Positions 29,072 through 51,359 of a DNA stretch of 64,000 nt are shown in pieces; the first letter of the stretch is position 1, and every line of letters begins with the position of its first letter. The notes beneath the pieces were generated by a model. It was not told the DNA's origin. It saw only the letters and a list, made by a program, of their open reading frames with translations, and made no database searches. A program made the position numbers and the translations under genes. The DNA is taken from the NCBI GenBank assembly GCA_043822705.1, contig JBDRBK010000055.1, forward strand, positions 1-64,000. Reading direction: 5' to 3'. Origin of the DNA: Fidelibacterota bacterium (GTDB taxonomy: Bacteria; Fidelibacterota; Marinisomatia; Marinisomatales; TCS56).

Positions 29072-30874
29072 TCAGTCCCGCGAGACCTCCAGCGGTTCGA
29101 CGATCATCAGCCCCCGGAATTCCTCACGATCCAGATAGGGATACATATCCTCCAAGGGCCGGGCGAAGCCGGTGCCATCGGGACGTCGCACAAATCCCTG
29201 CCGGGGGATCAATTCCTGGCGGGGATCGATCATGATTTCGCAGATGGCCGGACCCGGCTGGTCCAGCGTCCAGCGGATTTTTTCCTGTAACTCGGCCTGC
29301 GATGCTACCCTGGTCGCGGGAATTTCATAGGCTGCCGCCACTTTCTGATAATCGGGCAGACTCATGCCGCCGGCAGTTGCGGAGCCGGCAAAATTGCCCT
29401 CCAGGAATTCGGCCTGGGTGTGGCGGATCGACAGGTAACCGTCGTTATTGAAGACAAATATTTTCACTAGCAGATTATGATGACGAATGGTCTGCAATTC
29501 CTGAATATTGAACTGGAAGCTGCCATCGCCCATCATGCAGATTGTGCGACCACCGGTGGAAGCAAAAGTAGCGCCCACACTTTCCGGCAGACCGCTGCCC
29601 ATGGCGCCGATTCCTCCGGAATAGAGAATCCGCTGGCCGGCTTTCATTTTCAGCGCCTGAAATGTAGTGTAGACCACTGTGCCGCCACCATCTACTACAA
29701 CGGTATCAGCGGCGGTGAGCTGGGCGTCCAGCGCTTGCAGGAATACGTACTGGTTGACCGGTCCCGACCGCTCAATCCACTCGGCCGGATAAGCATTGTA
29801 TTTCCGGTAAACGCGACATTGTTCCAACCAATCGTCACTAAGGCCGGAAATTAAATCGCTTTCTGTGATCTTTCTTAAAAAATCCCCGGCGTCGGCGGCA
29901 ATTCCCAGATCGACACGCACCGTCGGGTGAGCCAGTTCATTGTGGTCGATATCCACCACAATCCGTTTAGCCTCCCGGGCAAAATAGTCAAAATTGGTGC
30001 CGGTGAGCGGCACGCTCAGGTGCGAGCCAATCGCCAGCAGCAGGTCACAATTCTGTACCGCCAGGTTGGCGCCGCGCTGCCCGGCCAGTCCGCAACGACC
30101 AACATAGCCGGGATGATCGGTGGGCAGCAGATCGCAGGCGGCCCAACTGGATACGAATGGCACCTGCAATTCATCCACAAGTTGTGAGAATTCTTTTTCC
30201 GCACTGGCCAGCCGAATGCCGTAACCGGCCAGAATCAGCGGTCTTTTTGCAGCGGCCAGCAGGTCCCGGCATTCATTCACTAACCCGGTCAGATCGATCT
30301 CTCCGACAACTGCAAATTCACTGTCCGGATCGAAGCCGGTCATGGTTTCGGGATCGACCTCCGCCCATTGCAGGTCCAACGGAATATCCAGCCAGACCGG
30401 TCCCGGTCGCCCGGCGGTAGCCAGGAAGGCCGCTTTTTCCAGATGATAACGAATCGAGTCGGCACGCTCCACCAGGGCGGCGTAATTGGTTACCGGTTCC
30501 ACCAGCGCCAGAATGTCCAGTTCCTGCGAACCGACCTGCCGAACCGGTTTGCCACGCGAGGTGTGGGCCAGCCGGGTCTGACCGGAAATGTAGAAGCAGG
30601 GAACCGAATCCTGCCAGGCGCCGATGACGCCGGTCAGGGCGTTGGTACCGCCGGGACCGGTAGTGACGATACAGGCGCCGGGACTATTCCTGATTTTGGC
30701 ATAGGCCGGCGCCGCCAGTGCGGCAGCCTGTTCGTGGTGACAGAAAACCGGTTTCAGACCGGGATGTTTGGCGGCCGAGTCAAAGAAATGGACCACGGCG
30801 CCGCCGGTGAGCCCGAAAACAGTGTCTACACCCTGCCGGGTCAGAAAATCGATGATAAAATCAGTCAGTTTCAT
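29072..30874 (-). CDS. ThDP-dependent enzyme, acetolactate-synthase-like (YerE-type context)
   Basis: HHEQAA, TTGPGGTN, GRPGPVWLDIPLD, GDGSFQFNIQEL...NN; no small subunit gene nearby. Confidence 0.88.
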   Translation of the reverse strand: MKLTDFIIDFLTRQGVDTVFGLTGGAVVHFFDSAAKHPGLKPVFCHHEQAAALAAPAYAKIRNSPGACIVTTGPGGTNALTGVIGAWQDSVPCFYISGQTRLAHTSRGKPVRQVGSQELDILALVEPVTNYAALVERADSIRYHLEKAAFLATAGRPGPVWLDIPLDLQWAEVDPETMTGFDPDSEFAVVGEIDLTGLVNECRDLLAAAKRPLILAGYGIRLASAEKEFSQLVDELQVPFVSSWAACDLLPTDHPGYVGRCGLAGQRGANLAVQNCDLLLAIGSHLSVPLTGTNFDYFAREAKRIVVDIDHNELAHPTVRVDLGIAADAGDFLRKITESDLISGLSDDWLEQCRVYRKYNAYPAEWIERSGPVNQYVFLQALDAQLTAADTVVVDGGGTVVYTTFQALKMKAGQRILYSGGIGAMGSGLPESVGATFASTGGRTICMMGDGSFQFNIQELQTIRHHNLLVKIFVFNNDGYLSIRHTQAEFLEGNFAGSATAGGMSLPDYQKVAAAYEIPATRVASQAELQEKIRWTLDQPGPAICEIMIDPRQELIPRQGFVRRPDGTGFARPLEDMYPYLDREEFRGLMIVEPLEVSRD

Positions 30875-30894
30875 AATTTTACCTTTTATCACCA

Positions 30895-30949
30895 TTCGAC
30901 AAGCTCAGGGTGACAATCCAAATATTACTGTCATGGTGAGCTTGTCGAA
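30895..30949. repeat. REP-like palindromic element
   Basis: TTCGACAAGCTCAGGGTGACA (30895-30915) and TGTCATGGTGAGCTTGTCGAA (30929-30949): 21-bp inverted arms with 3 mismatches. Confidence 0.8.
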
Positions 30950-31018
30950 CCATGATTGGCCCAGTTGTATCATTCTTTGACGGGCTCATTGTGACATTTG
31001 TTTTATTGCTCACCAGCA

Positions 31019-31804
31019 TCACTGCCAGGGAAAATGAAAATAGTGCTTGGCCTGACCGCCGTCCACCGGCACGATGGCGCCCTGGCAGAAAGAAGCCTGT
31101 TCCGAGCACAACAGCGCCACCATGGGACTGATCTCATCAGGCGTGCCGAAACGTTTCAGGACGGTACGTTCCTGCAGGTATTTTTCAGCGTGTTCGGGAC
31201 GGGTTTTAATTACTTCCGCCCAGTGTCCGCGTTCGGTGAACACCACGCCCGGTTGCAGGGCCGACATGACGATCCCGCTTTCAGCCAGGACCCGCCCCAT
31301 ACTGCGGGAGTAGGCTGTGAGGGCGGCCTTGATCGAGCAGTAGGTCACGGGACCGTTATTCTCCATGGCCGAACCGGCGGAGATATTGACAATCCGCCCC
31401 CAACCCTGGGCGCGCATATGGGGAATCAGCAGGTTATTAAGCTCCACATGAACTTCGAGATTCATGCGGAACACTTTACGCCAGTCCGTAATCGGGCACT
31501 CCGGATCGGTAATGTCAAGGGTGCTGCCGACGTTGTTCACCAAGATGTCGATCTGGCCGAATTCTCGCCAGATTTCCTCCGCCAGACACCGGGAACCATC
31601 GTCTTCCAGCTGGTCAATTTTCACGGCATAATGCCCACTTCCGGGACCGCCAACTTCAGCCAGCAGGGCATCCAGATCATCCTGTCGCCGCGATGTGAAG
31701 GCCACCAGGACGCCTTCCTTGATCAGTTCCAATACAATCGCTTTACCGATTCCGGTGGCGCCGCCGGTCACCAGGGCGCGTTTTCCTTTGATTCCCAGTT
31801 CCAT
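31019..31804 (-). CDS. Classical SDR oxidoreductase
   Basis: TGGATGIG, DILVNNVG, YCSIK, VDGG. Confidence 0.9.
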   Translation of the reverse strand: MELGIKGKRALVTGGATGIGKAIVLELIKEGVLVAFTSRRQDDLDALLAEVGGPGSGHYAVKIDQLEDDGSRCLAEEIWREFGQIDILVNNVGSTLDITDPECPITDWRKVFRMNLEVHVELNNLLIPHMRAQGWGRIVNISAGSAMENNGPVTYCSIKAALTAYSRSMGRVLAESGIVMSALQPGVVFTERGHWAEVIKTRPEHAEKYLQERTVLKRFGTPDEISPMVALLCSEQASFCQGAIVPVDGGQAKHYFHFPWQ

Positions 31805-31823
31805 AATCTACTCCATGCAAAAA

Positions 31824-33041
31824 TCAGATCGTGTTCAAAGGCACAATAACATGTTTGGGGCGCAGTTTGAACAGGTTGGGCAGCATCGCCCGCACATTGT
31901 TCAGGGAGGCCACCGCCGTTAACAGGAACACCGCCTCGCGCTCGTTTGCGATCGCCGCCCGCCCCCGGATCGGTACCGGCAGGTTCAGATAGTACAAACC
32001 ATCCTTGCGGGGATCGTCATCGACGATGCATTCCAGCCCGGACAGATCGTTTTCCAGATAGTAACTCAGTACCGGCAGCATCAGGGCCGCCCCGTAGCCG
32101 TAAATTTTCTCGTCTGCGAAATATTTCAGACGGGCATTGACCGCGGCCATTCCCTGTTTAAAAACCTGGTAGCGCCGGGCAATTTCTGCCGGCGTTATTT
32201 GCCAGATGTCGTTGTCAAAGCGGCCACGGTACCGGCCTTTTCGGAACGCCACCAGCAGGGCGCCCCAGTGCTCGAAATTGAAGGTGTAATCAATCAATTC
32301 GCAACCCAGTTCATTCAGCAGGTGTATCACCGACTGCAGGGTGAAATAATTCAGGTGCTGGTGGAAAATCTGGTCGAAACGCAAATCCTTGAGCGTCGAT
32401 TCCAGGCAGGGGAACTGAAAATAAAACAGGGTATCGTCCGCGGCCCGGTCCACCAGGCGACGGGTAAAATTTTTGGGATCGGCCACATGCTCCAGCGTAT
32501 CCTTGCAGATCAGCAGGTCAAAATTCCGCTCCAGTTCCACATTCTCAAAAAAGTCACCGATGACGGTCAGGTTGGTACCTGCCAGGTCGTCATCAAAATC
32601 CTTGAGAATCGGATCGATACCGGTCAGATGATCGGCATGGCCCTGCAATTCCTTGAGCAGGTACAGGTCGTTGCAACCCACTTCCAGGATGTGCCGGAAA
32701 TGGCGGTCGCCGCTGGTGCGTTTCATGAAATCGCGAAAGAACTGCGCCGACGAACGGCCGGTGGCCGACTCGCTGGTGCGGAAAAAATAGGAGAATGTTT
32801 CGCCGTATTGCAGTCCCACATCGATCACGTTGCGTAATTGGGCGTGGCCGCAGGCAGGACAAAAATCAAGACCCTGATCGGCCCGACCCACCGGTTCATT
32901 CACTTTTTCGGCTACATAAATCTCGGTCATCGGCAACCGGGGCAGGTCGATCGCCGAAGGTTGTGAAGCCTGTCCGCAGATCATACAATTATCCCGCTTT
33001 GCAAATGCTACCGTACGGTATCTGGAAATATCTATCTTCAT
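31824..33041 (-). CDS. NDP-sugar C-methyltransferase-like protein
   Basis: Zn ligands CMIC/CPAC, LEVGCND, IFHQHLNYF, YGYGAA, VDDDPRKDG. Confidence 0.8.
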   Translation of the reverse strand: MKIDISRYRTVAFAKRDNCMICGQASQPSAIDLPRLPMTEIYVAEKVNEPVGRADQGLDFCPACGHAQLRNVIDVGLQYGETFSYFFRTSESATGRSSAQFFRDFMKRTSGDRHFRHILEVGCNDLYLLKELQGHADHLTGIDPILKDFDDDLAGTNLTVIGDFFENVELERNFDLLICKDTLEHVADPKNFTRRLVDRAADDTLFYFQFPCLESTLKDLRFDQIFHQHLNYFTLQSVIHLLNELGCELIDYTFNFEHWGALLVAFRKGRYRGRFDNDIWQITPAEIARRYQVFKQGMAAVNARLKYFADEKIYGYGAALMLPVLSYYLENDLSGLECIVDDDPRKDGLYYLNLPVPIRGRAAIANEREAVFLLTAVASLNNVRAMLPNLFKLRPKHVIVPLNTI

Positions 33042-33053
33042 ATTTTTCTCTGT

Positions 33054-33833
33054 TTAATAACCAGGCTGCAGTGACAACTGTTGTAATGATTGGATCATGT
33101 GACAGGGTTGCTGCATAAAATCACTGCGGCTGCCCAACCCGGTGAGCACGCCGATATTGCAGGGAATGGAGGCCCGGATGCCCATCTCAATATCCACCGG
33201 ATGATCGCCGATCGAGGCCGTCTTCCAGGCCGGAACATCACAAATCTGCATTGCCAGGCGGGCGGGATCAGCAGCCGGTTTGCCGTTCTCTACCTGATCG
33301 CCGCCGATTACGGCGGTGAAATAATGATCGATCCTCAGCGCCTGCAATGCCAGTTGAATTCGCTCCCGCTTGTCCGCCGAAACCAGCGCCACCTGCACCT
33401 GGTTTTGCCGACAAGTGTGCAGAAATTCTACCACACCGGGCAGTAGTCGCAGCAGCGGTTCCGGATCGACCGCCGTCACCCGGTCGACTTGTTGAAACAG
33501 GTCTTCCACCGCCGCGGCGTCAATTTTCACGCCATTATCAGTGATTATTCGCCGGGCCACATCGACAATAAAACGTCGCGGCATAACGCCCACCGGTCCG
33601 TCCGACTTCATGCGACCGTTGATCTGATCGAATCCCAGGGCGTCGATTAATGCATTGCCGACCTTTTCCCCGATTGGCTGGCCGGCGAATAACTGGTCGA
33701 CAATCGTGGCGGCCCGCCGCCGGATCATCGAGCCCCAGTAATGATGGATGTCGATCAGAGTGCCGTCCTTGTCCAGCAGGATCAGCTCCACACCCTGCAA
33801 AACCACCTGTCTGTTGGCCAGTAAATCAATCAT
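33054..33833 (-). CDS. HAD-superfamily phosphatase
   Basis: LDKDGTL, GKPAAD, IGDHPVD. Confidence 0.88.
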   Translation of the reverse strand: MIDLLANRQVVLQGVELILLDKDGTLIDIHHYWGSMIRRRAATIVDQLFAGQPIGEKVGNALIDALGFDQINGRMKSDGPVGVMPRRFIVDVARRIITDNGVKIDAAAVEDLFQQVDRVTAVDPEPLLRLLPGVVEFLHTCRQNQVQVALVSADKRERIQLALQALRIDHYFTAVIGGDQVENGKPAADPARLAMQICDVPAWKTASIGDHPVDIEMGIRASIPCNIGVLTGLGSRSDFMQQPCHMIQSLQQLSLQPGY

Positions 33834-34848
33834 GCTTCAGATTCCTGCGGATTAAATCACGGGCGATTACCACGGCTTCACCGATCTGCTGGGGATCATT
33901 TTCGAATCCCGGCTGATGGATAAAATCTTTGACGATTTTGCGGGCATGAGTACCGATGCTGACACCATGGAAAGGCACCGCACACTGGCGGGCCAGGTCA
34001 CCGGTAAAACCATTGGTACCGCCGGAGAGCAGAGTCGGGATATGGCGATAGCGTTTATCTTTTAACAGTAATTCTTTATTGATGATATCAGCGATCGCGA
34101 TCGCCTGCAACGTGGTGTTGAAATCATTGCTGCCGCCGCTCATGGGGACGCCGTCGGCCTGGATCATCAAACGCTCACCTGCCACCGCATAGGCCTGGCG
34201 TATCCGCTCAATCAGCTGCACGTTGGATAAATGATAACGATCGAGACAGAGTGAAACGAAATTATCCGGTTGGGCCGCCGCGACGATTTCCCATTCCTGC
34301 ATAATCGTATCGTTATCGGGAACGGCGGCGTGCAACTCAATATTCTCGGCCCCGGCAGCCAGGCATTCCGGCAGGATTTCGGCCAGTTCGCACTGATTGT
34401 GTTCATAACTGATAGCCGCTACCTTGGGCGGACAGACCGCCTCACAATTACCGCAGCCGATGCACAGGTCGCGAATCACCGTCAGTTCCGCCGGGATCGC
34501 GGCGGTGGGACAGACCGGAATGCAGCGGTTGCAGCCGACGCAGGCGTCGGTGATGATTGCCTTGCGAACGTGGTGATCGCCCCTCATTCCCACACTGACC
34601 TTGATGAACGGTCGCAACGGGATGGCGACCGTATAGCTGTCCGCCAACTCATAGGCCCGATCGATTCCGGCAACACCGGCCCGGACAATTTCCGGGCTGG
34701 CGGACACGTCGAACCCGGTGGCGCCGGCCAGGGTGTAAACCAGGGTTAATTTATAGACATCGTCAGAGTTCTCATTGCCGGCACCGCAGACCAGTTTGAA
34801 ATAGCGGCCCTCGTCGAGCAACTGGCGCAATTGTTCAAAACGGGTCAT
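33826..34848 (-). CDS. ldpA: LdpA-family 2x[4Fe-4S] protein
   Basis: FKLVCGAG, CVGCNRCIPVCP, CIGCGNCEAVCP, IELH, QADGVPMSGG...TT, LSGGTN. Confidence 0.75.
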   Translation of the reverse strand: MTRFEQLRQLLDEGRYFKLVCGAGNENSDDVYKLTLVYTLAGATGFDVSASPEIVRAGVAGIDRAYELADSYTVAIPLRPFIKVSVGMRGDHHVRKAIITDACVGCNRCIPVCPTAAIPAELTVIRDLCIGCGNCEAVCPPKVAAISYEHNQCELAEILPECLAAGAENIELHAAVPDNDTIMQEWEIVAAAQPDNFVSLCLDRYHLSNVQLIERIRQAYAVAGERLMIQADGVPMSGGSNDFNTTLQAIAIADIINKELLLKDKRYRHIPTLLSGGTNGFTGDLARQCAVPFHGVSIGTHARKIVKDFIHQPGFENDPQQIGEAVVIARDLIRRNLKHD

Positions 34849-36599
34849 ACCTGTGGCCCGACGGAGATGAAATTGGTAATGCTTTCGTAGTACAACCGAT
34901 GGGTGGTGGGCGTAATGATGATCAGATCATTCATTTCATTGGCCACCAGATAATCGTTGATCTGCTTCAGGGACGCCTCCACGTAGTTGTGCCACTCCAT
35001 CTGCTCCCGGTAGGTCCCTGAGCGACTGGAAATCCCGGCCTTGTCACCCGCGTTCACGTCGTCTGCGGAATCACCCAGCCCGGCATTGAAGAACGTCTCG
35101 AAATCCTTATAGCCGTCCATCCCGGCGATGAACACGCGCCGGGCACCCATCGCCAGGGCAGCGGCAATCGACAGGATCGGAATCGCCCGGTAATCGCCAC
35201 CAATGATTCCATCAGTCAGACTGAATTCAGCCATCGGCCCGGCGCCATGCTGAATCAGTTCATAGCTGCGGTCGGTGTGCCGGCGGATATAATCATACTC
35301 AAAACCGTTACAGAGCAGCAGACCGGAATCGGGGTGCACGCTGGTAACATGTTGCTCAAACAAACGGCGATTGTTAAAGGAATGATAGTGCGGCACGAAC
35401 AGGTCACCCAGATAATTGGACCCGATTACTACGGGCTGGTATTGTTCGATGAACCGTTGAATATCCATCCGGCATGTGGCCAGCGAGGAACCATTCGCCA
35501 GAATCAGAAAGTCGCTGCCCTGGTAGCGGTCCGTATAGTCGGGCTTGATCGGTATCACCGGCGCCCGGTCGTCTTCCTCTGCATGGCCGGTATCGGATTG
35601 ACGCCCGACGAAACCGGTCTGGACGATCTGCGGCACGATATTCTTGTCAAAGCCCACCGGGTTCATGCACTGGATCAACTGCAGCACCGACTGGATTTCA
35701 TCAATGGTGAATTCGCCACTATCGGTGAGCGCCTTGGCGTAGTTGGGATGAACCTCGTAGACGCCGGAAATCATATAAGGCAGGTTGTAACCCCAGGAAA
35801 AACGGGCTTTCAATTCCAGATACCAGCGCTGGATCAGATCGAGGACCGGCAGCATGTTGTAGCGGTTCTCGTCGATAGTCTTCTGAAAATAGGCAATCAG
35901 TGTTTCCAGTGGCAGGTTGCCGGCACCGCGGCCCATACCGAATACCGTACCGTCAACGATATCGATTTCCGCGGCGATGGCCGCCAATGAATTGGAAAAA
36001 GCCAGTTGCATATTGTTGTGGGGATGGAAGCCTAGTGGCTTGTCCACCGCTCGCAGAATATCGCAGTATTTGTAGATATCCTGGGGCAGCAACGAACCGT
36101 AACTGTCAGCAAAATAGACGTAGGTCAGTTGAGATTCTTTCAACGGCGTCAGAATCTGCTGGAAATCGGCAGCGGTATAGCCGACGATGCCCATCAGTTG
36201 AATAGCGGTCTCATAACCCTTGGCCGCCACCTGGTTGGCAAAATCGATGGCTTCGACCAGCCTGGTTTTGTGACTGGCGATCCGGTACAGCCGGACTGGC
36301 GATTCGGCCGCCGGTGGAATGTCCTCGATATCGGCCTTACCGTAGTCAACCATCAACGCCAGCGGCGCACCGGCCACATTGGACACGATGTCATTCACCA
36401 GGTTTTCCGGCGTGAAGCGCCACAGACCCACCCGAGCGGGATCGAAATATTTTGCCGTACTGCGAAAGCCGATCTCGATATAATCCACCCCGGTCTTGGA
36501 GACCGAGCGGTAGGTGTCCTTCACCAGTTCCCGGGAAAAATCCCAGTTGTTCAGATAGCCCCCGTCGCGGATTGTGCAATCCAGAATTTTTGTTTTCAT
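34845..36599 (-). CDS. DRE-TIM aldolase (4-hydroxy-2-oxovalerate aldolase-like) fused to a Maf/MptE-like Rossmann domain
   Basis: LDCTIRDGGY, YFADSYG, GFHPHNN, GMGRGAGN; C-terminal ILANGSSL...ALAMGARRVFIAGMDGY. Confidence 0.78.
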   Translation of the reverse strand: MKTKILDCTIRDGGYLNNWDFSRELVKDTYRSVSKTGVDYIEIGFRSTAKYFDPARVGLWRFTPENLVNDIVSNVAGAPLALMVDYGKADIEDIPPAAESPVRLYRIASHKTRLVEAIDFANQVAAKGYETAIQLMGIVGYTAADFQQILTPLKESQLTYVYFADSYGSLLPQDIYKYCDILRAVDKPLGFHPHNNMQLAFSNSLAAIAAEIDIVDGTVFGMGRGAGNLPLETLIAYFQKTIDENRYNMLPVLDLIQRWYLELKARFSWGYNLPYMISGVYEVHPNYAKALTDSGEFTIDEIQSVLQLIQCMNPVGFDKNIVPQIVQTGFVGRQSDTGHAEEDDRAPVIPIKPDYTDRYQGSDFLILANGSSLATCRMDIQRFIEQYQPVVIGSNYLGDLFVPHYHSFNNRRLFEQHVTSVHPDSGLLLCNGFEYDYIRRHTDRSYELIQHGAGPMAEFSLTDGIIGGDYRAIPILSIAAALAMGARRVFIAGMDGYKDFETFFNAGLGDSADDVNAGDKAGISSRSGTYREQMEWHNYVEASLKQINDYLVANEMNDLIIITPTTHRLYYESITNFISVGPQV

Positions 36600-36614
36600 G
36601 GTAATTCCAGACGG

Positions 36615-37658
36615 TTAATCATGTTCCAGTTTGACGATCGCCCGGCCGACCCGACCCTGCTCCAGTTCAGTGAAGGCGGCATTAATCTCAGACAAAGTAA
36701 ACTCATGGGTGATTAAGCGTTCCAGCGGCAGGTCCGCGGACAGGTATAATTCCACATATGCAGGGATATCGCGATCGGGATCGCTGGCGCCGCCCCAACT
36801 GCCGTAGATCCGCTTGCCTTTGATCAGGTCGAAGGGATCGAGACAGATTTTTTCACCGGCGGCGGGATTGCCGGCGATGATGCACTGGCCACTGTTCTTG
36901 ATCGACGCAAAGGCCGCCTCCATCACGGTAGTGCTGCCCGTGGCCTCAATTGCAAAATCGACGCCACCGGGAACGACAGCATGAATTTCCGCTGCTGCGC
37001 TGGTCGTTTTACCGTTGATGACATGGGTGGCACCCAGGGACCGGGCCTGTTCCAGCTTGTGATCGAAGACATCGACGGCTATGATCGGACCGGCACCCAG
37101 GGCGGCAGCGGTCATGATGGCGCTCAGACCGATCCCGCCGGCGCCGAATACCGCCAGACTATTGCCCGGTCCGACCTGCAAAGAATTTCGGACGATACCC
37201 ACCCCGGTGGGAATGGCGCAACCCAGCAGGGCGGCCTCCCGCAAAGGCATGCCGGCCGGAATCACCACCAGCCGGTTTTCCGAAATCACGGCATTGGTCA
37301 AAAAAGTTGAGATTGCCCCGGAATTGACTTTTGCGCCACGGTAAAAATATTGGGCTGACGGCACATCGGCACCGCTGCCTTTCAGCCAGGTACAAACCAC
37401 CCGATCGCCGGGAGCGACTTTAGCTACCTGGGCACCGGTGGCCACCACCCGGCCCGAACCTTCGTGTCCCAGGGTGTGGGGCAGGAATTTATCCGGACCT
37501 TTTTTGCCGCGGATTTCATTGAGCTGGGTATGGCAGATGCCGCTGTAGGCCATCTCCACCAGGACCTGTCCCGGGTGCAAATCCGGCAGGTCCAATTCCA
37601 GTATCTGTAACGGTTGGTTCAATTCGGTCAGCACGGCGGCAGTGGTTTTCATTGTCAT
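36615..37658 (-). CDS. Zinc-binding medium-chain alcohol dehydrogenase
   Basis: GICHTQ, GHEGSG, LLGCAIPTG, GAGGIG; no structural-Zn Cys cluster. Confidence 0.9.
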   Translation of the reverse strand: MTMKTTAAVLTELNQPLQILELDLPDLHPGQVLVEMAYSGICHTQLNEIRGKKGPDKFLPHTLGHEGSGRVVATGAQVAKVAPGDRVVCTWLKGSGADVPSAQYFYRGAKVNSGAISTFLTNAVISENRLVVIPAGMPLREAALLGCAIPTGVGIVRNSLQVGPGNSLAVFGAGGIGLSAIMTAAALGAGPIIAVDVFDHKLEQARSLGATHVINGKTTSAAAEIHAVVPGGVDFAIEATGSTTVMEAAFASIKNSGQCIIAGNPAAGEKICLDPFDLIKGKRIYGSWGGASDPDRDIPAYVELYLSADLPLERLITHEFTLSEINAAFTELEQGRVGRAIVKLEHD

Positions 37659-37674
37659 TGTCTGATTCTCAACA

Positions 37675-38733
37675 TTAAAAAGGTCCCTTGAACCAGTCCC
37701 CCGGCACATCGTGGGGCACGTCGCCGCGGTCGATCAATTCGCTGCCCGTCAGGTTTCGCTGCAGCATGGCGGCGGCGGTGTCGATAATATCCTCCGCCCG
37801 TTTATAGAAACCCTTGGTCAGAGCGGGACTGGTGGGGGTGGGGAAGTCCGGCAAAGCCAGCAGCCACGGAGCCTGTTTCAAATCGTCGAAACAATCACGG
37901 CTGACCCGGGATATTATTTCACTGGCGATCGATCCGAAGGCCACCCCGGTGTCCACCGCCAGCAGCCGACCGGTCCGGTGCACCGATTCGAAGATCGGCT
38001 GCCAGTTCAGCGGTTTGATCGTCCGCAGGTCGATCAGGTCGCATCCGATGCCGTTTTCGGCCAGAATTCGTACGGCATGGAGCGCTTCCACCGACATGTA
38101 GGACATGGATACGATCGTCAGGTCAGCACCACTGCTGAGCAGCGCCGGCTGGCCCAGCGGCAACCGGAAATCGCCTTCCGGCACTGCACCCACCTGATTA
38201 TGAAGCCAGCGGTGTTCCAGAAATATCACCGGGTTGTCATCGAAAATGCTGGACAGCAGCAGACCTTTGGCATCGGCAGCGGTGGAGGGCATCACCACTT
38301 TCAATCCCGGAATATGGGCGAATAACGCCTGTAAATTCTGTGAATGCGTCGGACCCTGCCCCCAGCCCCGCCCCAGCAGCAGGCGAATCGTGATCGGGAT
38401 GGCCGTCTGGCCATCGAACATGTAATGCCATTTGGCAGCGTTGTTAATCAACTGATCCAGGGCCAGCAGGAAGAAATCCAGGCGCTGGTGGGTCATTACC
38501 GGGCGTATACCGTTCATGGCGGCGCCGATGGCGACGCCGGTCAGGGCGTTTTCAGCGGTGGGCATATCGAACACCCGTTCCACCCCGAATTTTTCCTGCA
38601 AACCGACAGTGGTGCCGAATACCCCCCGGGGGTCGGGCACGCCCAGACCGTAACAGATCACATTCGGATCGTCGGTCATGGCCTGTTGCAGCGCTTCGTT
38701 AATCGCCTGGGCGTAAGTGATCTGCCGGTTCAT
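37675..38733 (-). CDS. 2-oxoacid dehydrogenase E1 beta-like subunit
   Basis: RVFDMPTAEN, GPTHSQ, PGLKVVMPS, PVIFLEH, IDLRTIKP. Confidence 0.9.
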   Translation of the reverse strand: MNRQITYAQAINEALQQAMTDDPNVICYGLGVPDPRGVFGTTVGLQEKFGVERVFDMPTAENALTGVAIGAAMNGIRPVMTHQRLDFFLLALDQLINNAAKWHYMFDGQTAIPITIRLLLGRGWGQGPTHSQNLQALFAHIPGLKVVMPSTAADAKGLLLSSIFDDNPVIFLEHRWLHNQVGAVPEGDFRLPLGQPALLSSGADLTIVSMSYMSVEALHAVRILAENGIGCDLIDLRTIKPLNWQPIFESVHRTGRLLAVDTGVAFGSIASEIISRVSRDCFDDLKQAPWLLALPDFPTPTSPALTKGFYKRAEDIIDTAAAMLQRNLTGSELIDRGDVPHDVPGDWFKGPF

Positions 38734-39719
38734 TTGACGACCTCTTCACCGGCATACAAATTTTCAAATGCCACGGACTGGTCCGGGAAGGGAGCCGCCT
38801 CCGCCTGCTCGAAGGCCCGGTCGATTTCGACCCTGGCCTGTTCCCACCAGCGGGCAAAATCGCCTTCACCGGCATAATTGGACTGCCACAGCTCCCGTTT
38901 CATTTGCGCCAGCGGATCCCGTTCCCGCCAGACGGCAAACTCCTCTTCGGTGCGGTAACCCAGATCATTGTCGTAATTCGGCCCGCAATGCTCGCGCCAG
39001 CGGTAGGTGGCAAATTCCAGGAATTCCGGTCCCTGTCCCGACCGAATACGTTCCGTCGCCAGATTGACCTTCTGGAAAACTTCAACGACGTTATTTCCAT
39101 CACCGGCACCGGTTTTAATACCCAATCCGGCCAGTGATTCATGGATTTTCCGGCCGGCCGGTTGACGCACCGACAGTGGAGAATAGACAGAATACAGGTT
39201 GTTTTCACAGATGAACAGGACCGGCAGGTTTTTCAGAACGGCAAAATTAATCGATTCATATAGTACGCCCTCCTCCACCGCCGCATCGCCGAAAAAGACC
39301 GTACTGATCTGGTCGGTTTTTTGCAGACTGATCGACAGGCCCAGCCCCACCGCCAGCGGAATCGTATTGCCGACGATCGAGGTGCTGCCCATGAATCCCA
39401 CCGCTTTGTCGATCAGATGCATCGAGCCGCCCTTGCCGGAATTGCAGCCGCTGGCCTTGCCGTAAATCTCGGCGATCATCCGCTCCAGGTCACCGCCTTT
39501 AGCCAGGTAGTGAGCATGGGCCCGGTGAGTACTGAGGACAAAATCGGTATCCCGGAGATTCTCGCAAACGCCGGCGGCCACCCCTTCCTGGCCGATCGAA
39601 AGATGGGTCGGGCAACGCATCTTCCATTCGGAATAGCGTTCGGCGATGGCTTCTTCGGTCAGACGGATTTTGAGCATCCGTCGATAGAGTGAGTGCGCTG
39701 TTTTGCGGTCGATCTGCAT
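38730..39719 (-). CDS. 2-oxoacid dehydrogenase E1 alpha-like subunit
   Basis: HLSIGQE, STHRAH, GKGGSMH, FGDAAVEEG...ENN, TYRWREH. Confidence 0.9.
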   Translation of the reverse strand: MQIDRKTAHSLYRRMLKIRLTEEAIAERYSEWKMRCPTHLSIGQEGVAAGVCENLRDTDFVLSTHRAHAHYLAKGGDLERMIAEIYGKASGCNSGKGGSMHLIDKAVGFMGSTSIVGNTIPLAVGLGLSISLQKTDQISTVFFGDAAVEEGVLYESINFAVLKNLPVLFICENNLYSVYSPLSVRQPAGRKIHESLAGLGIKTGAGDGNNVVEVFQKVNLATERIRSGQGPEFLEFATYRWREHCGPNYDNDLGYRTEEEFAVWRERDPLAQMKRELWQSNYAGEGDFARWWEQARVEIDRAFEQAEAAPFPDQSVAFENLYAGEEVVK

Positions 39720-39740
39720 CCGTGCAATAACCGTCCCGGC

Positions 39741-40400
39741 TCAGGGAATGAACCAGTAATAATCGCCGGTATAACCGATCTCCTTAAAAAACTGCTGCCA
39801 CTCTTCCACATGCATGATCGTTTTGGCGGTCAGGTTCCAGGCCAGCATTAATTCTTTTTCTTCATCGTCGCGGTAGGCATCCATGGTGACAAAGCTCTGG
39901 CCGCGGCTGACGCGCTCGATCTCCTGCAGGGCGCGGCCGCATTCTTCCCGTGCCAGATTATGGACGGTGTTAATCGAAATCACCACGTCGAAAGAGTCGT
40001 CGTCGAAAGGCAGGGATTTGGCGTCCGCCACCTGCACATGGGGCCGCATGTCGTCCATGGCATTTTCGATGGCATACTCGGAGATATCGATGCCCTTCAC
40101 GGTAATGCCGGGGATCAGCTCCGCCATATCATGCAGCATAAAACCTTTGCCACAACCCACATCCAGCAGGCTGCTGTCACCCCTAAGACCGAAATGCTGT
40201 TGAAGCGTTGGCACTACCGGTTGCCAGAAACGGGAGAAATAATTGTAACCACCGTAACCGTGTTTGCGATCGCCGTCAAAAAATTCCCGGCCGAATTGAC
40301 GGGCGATGGCCCGGTCGGCTGCGGTCTTCTCGGCCCCGCGCTCCTTCACGTTGCGCTTGGTCTTGGGGTAGTTCACTAATAAATCAATTTCACGACCCAT
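39741..40400 (-). CDS. Class I SAM-dependent methyltransferase
   Basis: LDVGCGKG, GIDIS, LPFDDDSFD; FFDGDRKHGYGGY. Confidence 0.88.
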   Translation of the reverse strand: MGREIDLLVNYPKTKRNVKERGAEKTAADRAIARQFGREFFDGDRKHGYGGYNYFSRFWQPVVPTLQQHFGLRGDSSLLDVGCGKGFMLHDMAELIPGITVKGIDISEYAIENAMDDMRPHVQVADAKSLPFDDDSFDVVISINTVHNLAREECGRALQEIERVSRGQSFVTMDAYRDDEEKELMLAWNLTAKTIMHVEEWQQFFKEIGYTGDYYWFIP

Positions 40401-40423
40401 GGCGTCCTCCTTGACTGGGTTGG

Positions 40424-41359
40424 TTATACGATTTGTTTCATGATCCGCATATTGTAATAACGGTCATCGTCCTGCAGTTGACCGGACCGGAAGGCATCGA
40501 TCACTTCGGCGATGCCGGCGGCCACACCGTACTGCGGCCGGAAGCCGGTAGCGAGCAATTTGTCGGAGTTGAGCCGGTACGAGCGGGGATCGTTGGATTC
40601 GGTCACCACGATTTCCGCCGGCACCGATTGGGTGGCCAGTCGGGCGATATCCAGAATCGCCAAATTTTCGAAGCCGGCATTGAATACTCCAGTCACGCTG
40701 CCACCCAGTTCCAGAAAATGGCGGTAGACGTTGACCATGTCACGAATATGGATATTGGGCCGGACCTGGTTACCGCCGAACACGGTGATGCGCCCCTTGG
40801 ACAGGGCCTGCATGGTGAGCATATTAACGCTCAGGTCCAGCCGCATCCGGGGTGAATAACCGCAGATCGTGGCCGGCCGGACAATCTGCAGGGCGATCCG
40901 GTCGGCATAGCTCAGCAGCACCCGTTCGCTGATCATTTTGGTCTTGTTGTAATCGCTGATCGGCACCAGTGACAATTCTTCCGTCACCTGCGGTTCTTCC
41001 TTCACACCGTAAACGCTGCCGGAACTGGCATAGATGAACTGCCGCACGTCGCTGGCGATGGCCTTTTCCACTAACTGCATCGAAGCCAGTGCGTTCACTT
41101 CCCAGGTCAGTTTGGAATCCAGATCACCGGTGGGATCGTTGGCGATATTGGCCAGGTGAATGATCGCATCGACGCCGGACATAGGGACAGTGTCGGTATC
41201 GCGGATGTCGGCCCGGAATACCGTCAAATTGGTGTGTGGTTCCAGAAAATTCCCAAACCACTGGGTATCCACTACCGTAACCTGCTGCCCGTCGGACAGT
41301 AATTGCCGGGTCAGTTGAGTGCCCACGTAGCCGCAACCGCCGGTGACTAAAATATGCAT
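40424..41359 (-). CDS. NAD-dependent nucleotide-sugar epimerase/dehydratase/reductase
   Basis: TGGCGYVG, ASSGSVYG, YNKTK. Confidence 0.9.
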   Translation of the reverse strand: MHILVTGGCGYVGTQLTRQLLSDGQQVTVVDTQWFGNFLEPHTNLTVFRADIRDTDTVPMSGVDAIIHLANIANDPTGDLDSKLTWEVNALASMQLVEKAIASDVRQFIYASSGSVYGVKEEPQVTEELSLVPISDYNKTKMISERVLLSYADRIALQIVRPATICGYSPRMRLDLSVNMLTMQALSKGRITVFGGNQVRPNIHIRDMVNVYRHFLELGGSVTGVFNAGFENLAILDIARLATQSVPAEIVVTESNDPRSYRLNSDKLLATGFRPQYGVAAGIAEVIDAFRSGQLQDDDRYYNMRIMKQIV

Positions 41360-41367
41360 CGTTTGTC

Positions 41368-42357
41368 CTATGCCTTGTGTATGTAATCGAATGGTTGGTT
41401 CTGTAAAGTATCCAGGTTGTCGCTGACCCAGGCGATGGTTTCAGCGATCCCCCGCTCCAAAGAAATTGTATCCTGCCAGCCCAATTGCCGGCGGGCTTTG
41501 CTGCTGTCCAGCAGATAGGCCGAATCCTTGCCGGGCCGGTCTCCCACCACCTCCACATTGTCAGCGAATGATTTGCCCAGCCGCTCGGCGATCAGTTCCA
41601 CCAGCGCCCGGATGGAAATATTCTCAGTAGTGGAAAAGTGAAAGATTTCACCAGGAGCGGACTGACGGGCAACCCGCAGCGTGCCGTCGGCCACATCCCT
41701 GATATGAATAAACGATCGCAGCGAATGACCGCCACCGTGCAATTGCAATTTTTTACCCAGCAGGAAGTACAGGATCGTCCGCGGTATGATCCGGTACAGC
41801 TGCTGACCGGGACCATAAACATTGGCCGCCCGGGTGAACACCACCGGAAAGCCGTAGACTTCCTTGAAGGTCATCAGGCTCATATCGGCGGCCGCCCGGG
41901 AAACGGCGTAGGGCGTGCTGGGATTGTATCTGGTGCTTTCAGTCACCAGACCGCTGCAACTGCCGTAAACCTCGGGGGTGGAGATGTGGACATATTTTTT
42001 GAAGCCACCGATTTTCCGCAGTTCATCGTGGAGCTTGATCGTGGCTACCACATTGGTCTGATACCAGTGCTCGGGGTTGAGCCAGCTCTCACCCACCATG
42101 CCCTGAACGGCAAAATTGACGATATAGTCGGGACCAAATTCCCGGACCAGGTGCAGAATCTGCGGCAGGTCGCGGTTCAGATCCAGTTGCTGAAATTGGA
42201 AATTTTGTGAACCAATTGATTTGTAGGGGAGAAACACCGGATCCGATTCAGCCGAACGGCTGATGCCGGTAACCTCCAATCCCTGCTCAAGGCAATGCCG
42301 GACGAACCAGGCGCCGGAAAAGGAATTGGATCCGATTACTAAAATTCGTTCGTTCAT
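41368..42357 (-). CDS. NDP-hexose 4,6-dehydratase-like extended SDR
   Basis: GSNSFSG, STPEVYG, PSTPYAVSR, NVYGPGQ, DRPGKD. Confidence 0.82.
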   Translation of the reverse strand: MNERILVIGSNSFSGAWFVRHCLEQGLEVTGISRSAESDPVFLPYKSIGSQNFQFQQLDLNRDLPQILHLVREFGPDYIVNFAVQGMVGESWLNPEHWYQTNVVATIKLHDELRKIGGFKKYVHISTPEVYGSCSGLVTESTRYNPSTPYAVSRAAADMSLMTFKEVYGFPVVFTRAANVYGPGQQLYRIIPRTILYFLLGKKLQLHGGGHSLRSFIHIRDVADGTLRVARQSAPGEIFHFSTTENISIRALVELIAERLGKSFADNVEVVGDRPGKDSAYLLDSSKARRQLGWQDTISLERGIAETIAWVSDNLDTLQNQPFDYIHKA

Positions 42358-42932
42358 CGCTCGCTGGTCGAATATTCGGTTTTACCGATGATCATGTCCA
42401 CCACCGCCAGCAGCCAGACCTGATGCACGCCTTCCACGTGGTTGTAGGCCTTGCTGTCCACCCACAGGTTGATATCACCCAACTGCTGCAAGGGATTATC
42501 GGCCTCGAATCCCGACAGGGTGATCACTTTGGAAAAATTCTTTTTTCGGGCGGCATGGCAACCATTCAAAATATTTTTCGATCGGCCACTGGATGAAATG
42601 GCAATCAGCACATCGCCGGGATGGCCGTAATGTTCGACCGCCTTTTCCACCCATTTTTCATAACCGTAGTCATTGGAAAAACAGGTGATCAGGTCCGATT
42701 CATTGAAATTGATGCAGCGGACGCCGGCATTCTTGGTGATATCCACGGAAACGTGACTGGCGATGGCGGCGCTGCCACCGTTACCGACGATCATGGCGGT
42801 GTGGCCCCAGTCCCGGGAATCTTCCAGCACCTTTTTAATGTCCACCAGCTGTGCCAGTAATTCGGGGGTCGGCACCAGCAGGGCCTGCAGATCGGTGAGA
42901 TAGGTGGATAAGAATTGTTTGGGTTCGGTCAT
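42354..42932 (-). CDS. gmhA: SIS-domain phosphosugar isomerase (GmhA-like)
   Basis: GNGGSAAIASH, NDYGY, ISSSGRSKNI, VE..H. Confidence 0.8.
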   Translation of the reverse strand: MTEPKQFLSTYLTDLQALLVPTPELLAQLVDIKKVLEDSRDWGHTAMIVGNGGSAAIASHVSVDITKNAGVRCINFNESDLITCFSNDYGYEKWVEKAVEHYGHPGDVLIAISSSGRSKNILNGCHAARKKNFSKVITLSGFEADNPLQQLGDINLWVDSKAYNHVEGVHQVWLLAVVDMIIGKTEYSTSER

Positions 42933-44452
42933 TATTTCAGGCAGGTGGTCAGTGTTTTTAGCATCTGGGTTTTACTCAAAGCGGTCTTGTTGCCGATCGT
43001 CGCAACGGCATGAGCGCCGGCCAGGTTGCCCAGCAGCAGGGTCAGGTCCATCGGCATGTTGACCGCACAGCATAGCGCAGCCATCGACAACAGGGTGTCG
43101 CCGGCACCGATCCGGTCTACGACTTTGTTGGCGAAAGCCGGACACTCGATGAAGCCATCGCCGTTGGCGAATGACAGGGAGCCGTGGCTGCCGCGGGTGA
43201 TGATCACATTTTTGCAGTTCAGCTCGGACTGCAGCGTCTGGGCCAGTTCGCGGATATCACGGGTGCGGCTGCGGTACTCCTGGCGCAGTTCACCTTCATG
43301 GATGGAAACAAAATCAGAGCGGCGGTACCGCGGAATGGTATAATAACCCACGTTAGCGGCATTGGATTGGGTATTCACCGCCAGGAATTTGGCCTTTTCA
43401 GTCAGCAGGTCCACCACTTTGGGGGTAACCAATCCATGGCCGTAATCGGTAACGATCACCACATCGTAATGCGGCAATGCTTTTTCCAGCCGGCGACAGA
43501 ATTCCGCCTCTTCCCGTTCGCTGATTAATTCATCGTTAATTTCATAGACGCCGAACTGCTTGGTGTTGGAATAGGCATCGACGTAGCGGCGCTTGACGAT
43601 AGTGGGCGAACCGGACTTACGAATGCAATCCAGGCCCACATTATCTTTGATATGATTTTTAATGAAATTGGAATAAGAGCCGTTCTCGCCGAGGTAGCTG
43701 AATAATTTGGCTTTTTTGGTAAAGCCGGAAACATGATTGGCCACCGCCAGGACGCCGCCGGCATACATTTCCTGGGATATTTTCTGGGTGGCGATGATCG
43801 GCTCTTTGCCCGATTTGCCGAGAGCAGTGCAATAGACATATTCATCCAGAATAATTTCACCCACCAGCAGAACTTTCAGATTAGTCATTTGCTCGAAATA
43901 ACTGAAAATTTCCGCTCCCGTATATTTAGCTTTGATCCGTCCAAGGTAAACCTGCTGTTCGGGATTAAAAACCGGCAGGTACTGGTTGATTAATTCGGAG
44001 GAACTGGAAGTAGGTGTATCGGTGAATTCAATATCGCCGCCAACGGACCGGACTGCATCCGCTTCCAGGTTGATATTGCCGGTGAGATCGTTCTTGGCCT
44101 GTTTATAATCGGGACCTTTAACATAAATATCCGGTTTGAGCTGTTTGATCGTTTCGATCGCCGTGGGCCAGTTGTTGAGGCCCACAAAGTCAACGATGTC
44201 CAGGGCCATCAGCGACTCACCCCGGAGCACTTCCGGGAAGGCCGGCCGGCTTGGTCCCTTGTTGACGAAGCGGTCCGGTGTCAACGTCACGATCAGCACG
44301 TCCCCCAACTGCTTGGCAGCCTGGAGATATTTGATATGGCCGATGTGCAGCAGATCGAAAACACCGTGGCAATGGACCACTTTTTTACCGGTTTCCTTAA
44401 TACTGCGGACAATCGGCGCCAGCTCATCGATGCTGTACAATTTGTTATTCAT
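42932..44452 (-). CDS. Bifunctional nucleotidyltransferase + PfkB sugar kinase (HldE-like, reversed domain order)
   Basis: N-terminal HGVFDLLHIGH, NKGPSRP, YVKGPDY; C-terminal TDYGHG, DRIGAGD. Confidence 0.88.
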   Translation of the reverse strand: MNNKLYSIDELAPIVRSIKETGKKVVHCHGVFDLLHIGHIKYLQAAKQLGDVLIVTLTPDRFVNKGPSRPAFPEVLRGESLMALDIVDFVGLNNWPTAIETIKQLKPDIYVKGPDYKQAKNDLTGNINLEADAVRSVGGDIEFTDTPTSSSSELINQYLPVFNPEQQVYLGRIKAKYTGAEIFSYFEQMTNLKVLLVGEIILDEYVYCTALGKSGKEPIIATQKISQEMYAGGVLAVANHVSGFTKKAKLFSYLGENGSYSNFIKNHIKDNVGLDCIRKSGSPTIVKRRYVDAYSNTKQFGVYEINDELISEREEAEFCRRLEKALPHYDVVIVTDYGHGLVTPKVVDLLTEKAKFLAVNTQSNAANVGYYTIPRYRRSDFVSIHEGELRQEYRSRTRDIRELAQTLQSELNCKNVIITRGSHGSLSFANGDGFIECPAFANKVVDRIGAGDTLLSMAALCCAVNMPMDLTLLLGNLAGAHAVATIGNKTALSKTQMLKTLTTCLK

Positions 44453-44732
44453 AAACGCACTCGGAATTAGTACCTGAAATCATCACTGGATTAAGTACAA
44501 ATACTATTCCACCATCCGGAAATGAATAAGGAACTGATTTTTTACTGGGAAAATAACCTGAAACAGGATATCTGATCAGCCATAGGTTTAGTAACAGGAA
44601 TCCTATGCCGGTACATTATAATCAATAAGGGGAAATTATTTCCCGGTCAACGGAAAGTTTCAGGTGGGAAGGATTGTGGAATTATTATTGCGGTGGGCTG
44701 AATTGAGACAGAATAATGAATCAACAATCAAT

Positions 44733-47125: not shown

Positions 47126-47800
47126 TTATTTCCGCGGTCCAACAGCAATAGACCAGATATAATGGCTCATCGGCCCGTAACCGGTGTGCAGCACTTCATC
47201 ATTCATGCCGAACATGAATACATTATTGAACCAGGTTTCCATCAACTCTTTCAGTGAGTCCATACTTTTCAGATTGATATGCTGGACTGCACTGCAGGGA
47301 CTGGCATATTGAGAGGCAGTGATATTAGGAGTTCCAGTGATCAAAACACCATCGGCTGGCAAATTGGCCACCGTTTTTTCCATTACAACCTTTTCGTGGT
47401 TGGGGTCGATATGCTCAAGAAAATCGATGGAGAATATGGCATCCACAGGAATATCCAACTTGTCTTTGGTGACATCGGCGCAGACCGTACTCAAATTAAG
47501 GAAATATTTTCCCAAACGCCGCTGAATACTGTCCAGTGGCCGTTGCTCCCAATCGACACAATACAGTTTTTCGGCAACCTGAGCAATCAATGGAATCCCG
47601 ATCCCGTCGCCACAACCCAGCTCTAAAACCCGTTTTTTCCCGGCCAGCATTTTAGCTACAAATTTATAGCGCGAAAGAACAAAGGCCAGATGCTTGGGAT
47701 CGTGAGTCAGGCTATAGGAGCTGGGCGCACCCAATAAAATTTCATCGTGCTCAAATTGAAAATCGGCACCTTCACGATAAAGTTTTTTAACATCAACCAT
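47126..47800 (-). CDS. Class I SAM-dependent methyltransferase
   Basis: SRYKFV, VLELGCGDG, DFLEHI, GTPN; ATG 47800 overlaps the upstream gene end. Confidence 0.85.
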   Translation of the reverse strand: MVDVKKLYREGADFQFEHDEILLGAPSSYSLTHDPKHLAFVLSRYKFVAKMLAGKKRVLELGCGDGIGIPLIAQVAEKLYCVDWEQRPLDSIQRRLGKYFLNLSTVCADVTKDKLDIPVDAIFSIDFLEHIDPNHEKVVMEKTVANLPADGVLITGTPNITASQYASPCSAVQHINLKSMDSLKELMETWFNNVFMFGMNDEVLHTGYGPMSHYIWSIAVGPRK

Positions 47801-51346: not shown

Positions 51347-51359
51347 TTCAGCCGGAGGT

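Follow-up and report, generated by a model that had tools for sequence, protein, structure and literature searches.

What is made by the gene block at positions 29072 to 44452 of the window, the 64,000-nucleotide stretch of Fidelibacterota DNA analysed here (GenBank assembly GCA_043822705.1, contig JBDRBK010000055.1, positions 1 to 64,000)? An earlier note had proposed that the block is devoted to making an unusual nucleotide sugar, branched or extended, and this proposal is supported by the present analysis. The 14-gene block consists of two modules: a core, which is related to the operon linked to bradyrhizose in photosynthetic Bradyrhizobium strains, and a tail, which resembles the published route to acyl-branched sugars. 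Whether this intact two-module operon builds one large nucleotide-activated, branched and methylated surface sugar is, in our estimate, an even call.

All 14 open reading frames (ORFs) are intact and run on the minus strand from 44452 to 29072 in the order first given, with intergenic spacings of -35 to +23 bp and a single exception of 123 bp ahead of the acetolactate synthase (ALS)-like gene. Pfam and NCBIfam are consistent with the family label of every gene, so that the tight run described earlier is verified in its order, labels and motifs. From HldE to the alcohol dehydrogenase (ADH), the Pfam architecture comprises CTP_transf_like N-terminal to PfkB, SIS_2, two extended short-chain dehydrogenases/reductases (SDRs), Methyltransf_11, E1_dh, Transket_pyr/C and Zn-ADH; from the aldolase to the ALS-like gene, it comprises HMGL-like, LdpA_C with two Fer4 domains, HAD, Methyltransf_13/14, adh_short and TPP_N/M/C. 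The catalytic motifs are kept (HIGH and GAGD; GDA..NN; CHT/GHE/C; RDG and HxH; two CxxCxxCxxxC; DxDGT; YxxxK; HEQ and GDG..NN). The SIS protein, the reversed HldE, the two extended SDRs, a methyltransferase, the E1α/β pair and the Zn-ADH form the core.

The relative to which the core points is the gene set for bradyrhizose, in full 4,9-cyclo-6-deoxy-8-C-methyl-nonose. This bicyclic, inositol-fused sugar of ten carbons carries hydroxyls at 4, 5 and 9 (PMC9912281, PMC9042403). Six photosynthetic Bradyrhizobium strains share eleven conserved genes, among them gdh, and an insertion into gdh abolishes the bradyrhizose O-antigen (Busset 2016, PMC4743980); the paper found the bradyrhizose genes but did not assign them. 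The peptides encoded by the published gdh primers occur at matching positions in the dehydratase-like SDR of the window, and a gdh orthologue with 54-56% identity is present in 31 genomes (401-genome sample, large nodulating genus). The forward gdh primer matches none of 401 genomes in a family-wide sample. Both gdh primers find their target at G770:C1:1977600-1978583, without a mismatch and spanning 381 bp, and both rfaL primers match the same genome ~45 kb from gdh, a distance that the paper gives as about 44 kb (PMC4743980). Exactly 11 co-oriented genes surround this gdh, in the order reversed HldE, nucleotidyltransferase, SDR, SIS, gdh, transketolase N, transketolase C, Zn-ADH, small HAD-like gene (named by eye and without Pfam match), APH-like kinase and methyltransferase. 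Six of them have counterparts in the window: HldE (25% identity), epimerase/reductase (61%), SIS (33%), dehydratase (55%, 328 aa), ADH (46%) and methyltransferase (43%). In that genus a transketolase follows gdh in 30 of 30 loci. When the remaining genes of the operon were compared with the 22 window proteins, the only match was a 26% fold match of transketolase C to E1β; transketolase N has no match in the window. Judged by these comparisons, the window core is homologous to the 11-gene gdh operon. The operon is followed, at L199:3630-8708, by two TylF O-methyltransferases and a gene of the GSCFA family.

For split transketolases and for E1 pairs that lack E2, the addition of C2 units to keto sugars has been proposed or shown (PMC12247030). 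The carbon count of a heptose (seven), a glycolyl group from transketolase (two) and a methyl group from S-adenosylmethionine (SAM; one) would give the ten carbons of bradyrhizose, and a C7 aldehyde made by the ADH could serve as a handle for chain extension or ring closure. A further precedent for the core is CBU0678 of Coxiella burnetii, a reversed-domain HldE of unknown function that is needed for full-length lipopolysaccharide (LPS) (PMC5843353, PMC13552124). In line with the earlier note, no characterized pathway matching the full set was found; the bradyrhizose link and the Coxiella precedent had been overlooked.

Related core loci were fetched with an alignment of the conserved methyltransferase; a genome scan with the reversed HldE as single query found nothing. 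The resulting set of 163 loci (the best 80 of 364 genome loci, 80 of 494 metagenome loci and 3 viral loci) is skewed to close relatives. At least 7947 of 8000 scored candidates match the methyltransferase at E<=1e-40, and the best 120 share 76-100% identity; compared with solved structures, its profile gave no informative match. Methyltransferase and E1α occur together in 74 of the 80 genome loci, which cover 17 named phyla, one of them archaeal. Among the 45 loci of at least 20 kb (with the duplicate pairs L026/L092 and L048/L118), all eight core genes are found in 27 and at least seven in 35. The core cassette is very widespread. Its dehydratase-like SDR carries TPEVYG and YAVSR where RmlB has TDEVYG and YSSSK, and xxPEVYG is the norm of the family (68 of 73 orthologues). 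In the 40 long loci with E1α/β, a second ThDP (thiamine diphosphate) slot beside an SDR holds only an ALS-like gene in 28, only a split transketolase in five, both in one and neither in six. The pairing of two ThDP strategies, which the earlier note had stressed, is therefore common, as 29 of these 40 loci also have an ALS-like gene. Nor is the combination of three carbon-carbon-forming systems unusual: E1, ALS-like enzyme, aldolase and C-methyltransferase, together with a DmpF/DmpG pair, are found in four other distinct loci (L046, L068, which equals L145, L107 and L129). In L046, L107 and L129, a second, divergent methyltransferase copy (42-46%) follows the ALS-like gene and forms its own supported group.

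In the scheme of Steitz 2022, a pyruvate aldolase forms a 4-hydroxy-2-oxo acid, whose acyl part is attached to a keto sugar by a YerE-like enzyme before a reductase completes the branch; this logic has been demonstrated in vitro for ErwE (PMC9306805). Systems of this kind comprise ErwI/ErwJ/ErwE/ErwF (erwiniose), MMAR_2331/2332 (caryophyllose), YerE/YerF and JanthE (PMC9306805, PMC12247030). The tail follows this scheme, as far as protein comparison can indicate, with a replaced donor pair; aldolase and ALS-like enzyme, which had been counted as independent systems, are most likely two steps of it. Among solved structures, the ALS-like protein of the window scores 433 bits with 8RPH, 270 with 5AHK, which we take to be PpYerE, and 246 with Escherichia coli IlvB. 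It is thus closer to YerE-like enzymes, 8RPH being JanthE (PMC12188165), than to acetohydroxyacid synthase. A quick tree of 70 ALS-like rows (coverage of at least 90%, duplicates dropped) groups it with L046, L060 and L068, all of them DmpF/DmpG loci (SH-aLRT 96), inside a 30-row side that holds every one of the 24 rows linked to an aldolase, separate from the 39 rows that lack one. In related loci, SDRs of the type adjacent to it in the window neighbour either an ALS-like gene or a split transketolase. The C-methyltransferase of the tail matches TcaB9 and MtmC-type C3'-methyltransferases in the PDB at only about 50 bits. Its zinc cysteines, EVGCND and His are kept; FDxIYxEH is changed to FDQIFHQH (Y to F, E to Q), and the FHQH variant is conserved in orthologues.

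The replaced donor module consists of the aldolase fusion, the LdpA-like protein and the HAD phosphatase. A whole-protein fold search with the aldolase model gave BVU_2661 and DmpG as best matches. The C-terminal domain of aldolase homologues scores as PF01973, with weak CST-I matches below the cut-off, and the window's own C-terminal part is without Pfam match. The model of the LdpA-like protein (pLDDT 87) is a TIM barrel with a two-cluster ferredoxin insert. HAD homologues flank LdpA-like genes in L235, L236 and L242, the order LdpA-HAD-aldolase-ALS is found in L235 and L236, and in G029 the order is aldolase-HAD-LdpA-aldolase followed by a CMP-Kdo-synthetase-like gene. Phage contigs (L209-L237) carry a compact set of branched-sugar genes, in which an LdpA-like gene is accompanied by one or more HpcH/HpaI aldolases, a small HAD-like gene, a JanthE-like ThDP enzyme, an RfbH-like pyridoxal phosphate (PLP) enzyme, SDRs and glycosyltransferases, and in some of them a CMP-sugar synthetase takes the place of the ThDP enzyme. 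Of 29 phage LdpA-like loci, an aldolase is present in 28, an ALS-like gene in 20 (together with an RfbH-like PLP enzyme in 19) and a CMP-sugar synthetase in eight; one locus has neither of the latter two and none has both. This mutual exclusion is suggestive only. It would fit one 2-keto-3-deoxy acid with two fates, CMP activation or transfer by an ALS-like enzyme, and the window, which has an ALS-like gene and no CMP synthetase, would have taken the latter. The best guess for the LdpA-like Fe-S protein is that it supplies or deoxygenates the aldehyde in place of DmpF. At L242:9405-15110, an aldolase fusion, HAD, an FNR-like gene (named by eye), an LdpA-like gene, an HpcH-like aldolase and a CMP synthetase stand in a row; the Fe-S protein may have its electron partner in the FNR-like product.

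Together, the two modules could act in the following manner: SIS and reversed HldE would convert sedoheptulose 7-phosphate to a nucleoside diphosphate (NDP)-heptose with the help of a borrowed phosphatase, and the gdh orthologue would turn this into a 4-keto-6-deoxy sugar. The Zn-ADH may then oxidize C7 to an aldehyde, and the E1α/β pair, in the place of the bradyrhizose transketolase, would transfer a C2 unit derived from pyruvate. The resulting alpha-hydroxy ketone would be C-methylated by the conserved methyltransferase and reduced by the second SDR. In the tail, HMGL aldolase, LdpA-like Fe-S enzyme and HAD phosphatase presumably combine pyruvate with an aldehyde (phosphate) into a 2-keto-3-deoxy acid. 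The JanthE/ErwE-like enzyme would decarboxylate this acid and place the acyl group onto a remaining ketone of the sugar; the adjacent SDR may then reduce the branch, and the C-methyltransferase may add one more methyl group. The predicted product, of at least 13 carbons, would reach a surface glycan via the neighbouring glycosyltransferases. All seven of these steps are inferred; what is observed is gene content, motifs, the non-housekeeping status of the ThDP enzymes, homology to the gdh operon with a common gene order, and co-occurrence of the modules. A single product is favoured because the block lacks a second source of keto-deoxysugar (no RfbH-like gene).

Several points weigh against this one-sugar reading. 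On the side of the core, the gdh insertion may have been polar, which the paper did not exclude (PMC4743980). The split transketolase, separate nucleotidyltransferase, small HAD-like gene and APH-like kinase of the gdh operon are without counterpart in the window, and the Bradyrhizobium methyltransferase is a long branch with only 43% identity to that of the window. The dehydratase lacks the Asp of RmlB, and the SIS protein is so divergent that an octose or another heptose stereoisomer is possible. On the side of the tail, the fold search with the LdpA-like model returned generic TIM barrels only (best Z 17.4) and indicated no function. The exclusion of ALS-like gene and CMP synthetase in the phage loci, with a naive Fisher p of 2e-6, shrinks on the LdpA tree to four independent pairs (three opposite, one not differing; p 0.25), and some of the contigs end early. 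LdpA-like and HAD homologues occur in none of the 163 core loci, so that the exact join of core and donor module is seen only here and, in part, in a relative (run X2); among the contigs listed for that relative, no piece bridges the ADH-aldolase junction. Finally, the YerE-like and E1α/β sugar enzymes known so far act on ring ketones, and each could thus serve a sugar of its own.

This last possibility, in which the core alone makes a bicyclic, deoxy-bradyrhizose-like C10 sugar (E1α/β giving acetyl rather than glycolyl) and the tail, starting from a shared or housekeeping 4-keto-6-deoxy precursor, makes a separate sugar of the erwiniose/caryophyllose type, is a serious one, although we lean against it. 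The core can evidently stand alone, since six of the 40 E1 loci have neither ALS-like gene nor transketolase within 10 kb; caryose and caryophyllose are found together in one LPS (PMC9092360), and an RmlB-like gene lies on contig C86. A second ThDP slot, ALS-like or transketolase beside an SDR, is nevertheless part of the core operon in 34 of the 40 loci and across phyla, which suggests a shared intermediate, and the window has no 3-dehydrase gene. Rather unlikely is a scheme in which the trio of aldolase, LdpA-like protein and HAD yields a Kdo-like acid for activation by the CMP synthetase encoded on contig C25, while the ALS-like enzyme adds only acetyl from pyruvate, as YerE does. The same trio does stand beside the CMP-Kdo-synthetase-like gene in G029, distant kin of the aldolase accompany such a gene on a Leisingera plasmid, and the CST-I resemblance of the C-terminal domain in aldolase homologues, weak as it is, points the same way. 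In the window itself, however, no CMP synthetase is present, ALS-like gene and CMP synthetase never meet in the 29 phage loci, and the window enzyme groups with aldolase-linked relatives instead of the 39 aldolase-free ones.

An ordinary heptose locus with displaced IlvB and pyruvate dehydrogenase (PDH) E1 genes is almost certainly not the explanation. The top NCBIfam matches of the ThDP enzymes are indeed acetolactate synthase and PDH E1 models; all these matches are, however, below the cut-offs. The ThDP enzymes are not housekeeping, because full ilv and PDH operons lie elsewhere in the genome: ilvD-ilvB-ilvH-ilvC-leuB-like genes on contig C121 and E1α-E1β-E2-E3 on contig C198 (names by eye from translations, E2 by Pfam). 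The products of these operons share 28-37% identity with the ThDP enzymes of the block (IlvB and the ALS-like protein 30%), and E2, E3 and IlvH are absent from the 163 related loci. The assignment to housekeeping metabolism, which the earlier note had named as an outcome that would refute it, accordingly fails. Canonical ADP-heptose synthesis is likewise a poor description of the sugar genes: the domain order of HldE is reversed, the HldE and GmhA scores are 174 of 521 and 86 of 209 bits, separate RfaE-I, RfaE-II, GmhA-like and GmhB-like genes are present elsewhere in the genome, and a better gmhA match (181 bits) lies on contig C110.

Beyond the one-sugar reading, a wider and rather tentative proposal, which we would not expect to hold as a whole, joins both modules. 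The LdpA family would comprise Fe-S TIM-barrel enzymes of 2-keto-3-deoxy acid synthesis, encoded in a mobile donor module of bacteria and phages with interchangeable aldolase and HAD, whose product is either CMP-activated or passed on to a YerE-like enzyme. In the window, this module would decorate a ring-closed carbocyclic core of the bradyrhizose type and yield an as yet undescribed bicyclic branched sugar of at least 13 carbons.

Features of the block and its neighbourhood (window coordinates)
Feature	Position	Strand	Basis
Reversed HldE-like nucleotidyltransferase-kinase (core)	42932..44452	-	CTP_transf_like 29-155 + PfkB 193-491; HldE 174 bits vs cut-off 521
Divergent GmhA-like SIS isomerase (core)	42354..42932	-	SIS_2; gmhA 86 bits vs cut-off 209
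4,6-dehydratase-like SDR, Bradyrhizobium gdh orthologue (core)	41368..42357	-	55% to primer-matched gene; STPEVYG, YAVSR
Extended SDR epimerase/reductase (core)	40424..41359	-	61% to gdh-operon counterpart; GGCGYVG, YNKTK
Conserved class I SAM methyltransferase, predicted C-methyltransferase (core)	39741..40400	-	43% to gdh-operon methyltransferase
E2-less E1-alpha (ThDP)	38730..39719	-	E1_dh; 28% to genome's own PDH E1-alpha
E2-less E1-beta	37675..38733	-	Transket_pyr/C; 37% to genome's own PDH E1-beta
Zn-dependent alcohol dehydrogenase (core)	36615..37709	-	ADH_N/ADH_zinc_N; 46% to gdh-operon ADH
HMGL-like pyruvate aldolase fused to DUF115/MptE-like domain (donor module)	34845..36599	-	HMGL-like 3-239
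LdpA-like TIM barrel with 2x[4Fe-4S] insert (donor module)	33826..34848	-	LdpA 130 bits vs cut-off 450
HAD phosphatase (donor module)	33054..33833	-	Hydrolase/HAD_2
Sugar C-methyltransferase-like protein, TcaB9/MtmC fold family	31824..33041	-	PDB matches ~50 bits
Classical SDR, predicted YerF/ErwF-type branch ketoreductase	31019..31804	-	adh_short; YCSIK
Palindromic repeat element, SDR-ALS gap	30888..30956	.	28-nt arms, 79% complementary, 13 nt spacer
YerE/JanthE-like ThDP carboligase (ALS-like)	29072..30895	-	PDB bit scores; tree
Second cassette-type SDR	47793..48626	-	ALTVAK vs YxxxK in six commonest motifs (32 of 42 orthologues)
Cassette-associated methyltransferase	47126..47857	-	Homologue in 14/163 related loci
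NanM-like sugar O-methyltransferase, inserted	44664-46058	+	TIGR04371 over cut-off; GC 43-45%
Methyltransferase, inserted	46160-47083	+	Methyltransf_23; GC 43-45%
Three paralogous GT-B-like proteins, candidate transferases	48638..52703	-	43-50% mutual identity
GT2 glycosyltransferase, directly downstream of ALS-like gene	27980..29068	-	Glycos_transf_2; 3-bp gap

Two gene starts probably differ from the called ORFs: that of the ADH lies at about 37652, and that of the ALS-like gene at 30874, because the ATG at 30895 falls within the palindromic element, at which many unrelated contigs from other organisms join. A tRNA in this gap was ruled out, no RNA holders were listed, and promoter and terminator scans performed no better than chance. 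The run X2 contigs span C-methyltransferase-HAD-LdpA (32428-34177) and the genes from the conserved methyltransferase through both extended SDRs and SIS to HldE (40131-43492), which counts against an assembly artefact. Homologues of the methyltransferase, the aldolase and the LdpA-like protein (79-81% identity) each report a longest contig of 34,437 bases, which hints that the same arrangement exists elsewhere. Among the genomes searched, the block is patchily distributed: 40 relatives contain no close E1α at E<=1e-60, one of 400 other genomes of the phylum has the LdpA-like gene, and plasmid searches gave one partial match to the methyltransferase, none to the LdpA-like protein and eight partial ones to the aldolase.

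The block is set in a glycan island that lies downstream of flgK, flgL and fliW and contains GT2, GT2-TPR and GT4 genes, extra methyltransferases, an asparagine-synthase-like gene and the three GT-B-like paralogues. This island is a mosaic, with a GC content of 54-59% at 29-42 kb but 43-46% at 44-52 kb. The SDR at 47793-48626 and the methyltransferase at 47126-47857 are two more cassette genes upstream of the limits first drawn; with ALTVAK in place of the AYTVSK-like motif of orthologues, this SDR has lost the catalytic Tyr and is probably inactive, and it may be a leftover whose role passed to the SDR at 31019-31804. Atlas look-alikes of the GT-B-like protein at 49997-51346 are Gtf3_C/GT4 clusters. 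At 25038-28283, an N-terminal membrane part (PMT_2 (GT-C), 17 bits against a cut-off of 26) is fused to GT2 and TPR; the ORF as called overlaps the GT2 gene by ~300 bp, and its true start is probably later. The flagellar genes at 57710-64000 (flgH-flgI-flgN-flgK-flgL-fliW, then TPR and TPR-GT2 genes) include no flagellin, and in the 93%-complete assembly the only Flagellin_N match is FlgL in the window, with no flagellin gene. The flagellar linkage suggests protein glycosylation as the destination of the sugar. Flagellin-like genes (named by eye) lie within 10 kb of an E1-type core at L038:3108-5774 and in three other loci, of Rhodopseudomonas type. A tRNA-Lys(CTT) is found at 5694-5767 amid several sensor histidine kinase genes.

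How bacteria synthesize carbocyclic and bicyclic LPS sugars is an open question, and the biosynthesis of caryose was called unknown in 2022 (PMC9092360). The gene-by-gene map of the 11-gene operon, together with the swap of transketolase and E1α/β in a 17-phylum cassette, provides a short, testable reaction scheme. The tail in turn allows an initial proposal for the biochemistry of LdpA-like proteins and gives a lead to new ThDP carboligases that accept ketones and use long-chain donors, enzymes that are in demand in biocatalysis (PMC12247030). If the wider proposal were true, bradyrhizose, possibly caryose, and the reversed HldE of Coxiella would all be accounted for by one core chemistry. 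Each enzyme logic has precedent, and the cassette is common. In the open-access literature, no description of the gene set, its product or its biochemistry was found. Krug 2024 is said to cover over 200 YerE-like clusters and may list the present cassette. The available supplement text of Steitz 2022 (PMC9306805) makes no mention of the gene cluster.

Compared with known systems, the block would function in the manner of both the bradyrhizose operon and the acyl-branch scheme, but it is a member of neither, because defining genes of each are absent. Like the window, the gdh operon has a two-gene ThDP enzyme between dehydratase and ADH, a split transketolase where the window has E1α/β; its 11 genes include no YerE-like enzyme, aldolase, LdpA-like protein or C-methyltransferase, all of which the window has, and the literature searched contained no characterization of its enzymes. 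The acyl-branch scheme shares with the window a pyruvate aldolase (HMGL-like, 34845-36599), a YerE-like ThDP enzyme and an adjacent reductase (SDR 31019-31804). Its acetaldehyde dehydrogenase and CDP-3,6-dideoxy genes find no DmpF-like or RfbH-like match in the window, its usual DmpF/DmpG donor pair is replaced by the HMGL-DUF115 aldolase with LdpA-like protein and HAD, and the acceptor differs in being probably heptose-derived; the ThDP motif is GDG in the window enzyme and CDG in JanthE. Cyanobacterial LdpA (NF045992) likewise combines LdpA_C with Fe-S domains and two CxxCxxCxxxC motifs, but the window protein reaches only 130 bits against the circadian cut-off of 450, and its relatives reside in sugar loci with aldolase and HAD and no known clock context. 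The window E1α/β pair is unlike actinomycete antibiotic ones, on comparison of gene content, in that its locus serves a surface glycan and also holds heptose genes and an ADH; a PDB search with the pair retrieved housekeeping E1 structures only. AviB1/B2 is presumably a further example of an E2-less E1α/β sugar carboligase. In Coxiella, cbu0674-cbu0678 also place a reversed HldE beside a phosphoheptose isomerase and two SDRs (compared by annotation only), whereas the sugars known there are C6/C7 branched monosaccharides. The E2-less pairs (alphaKADH2) of aldgamycin, kosinostatin and KbDH share with that of the window the E1α/β organization, the lack of E2 and E3 and the location in a nucleotide-sugar cluster (PMC12247030).

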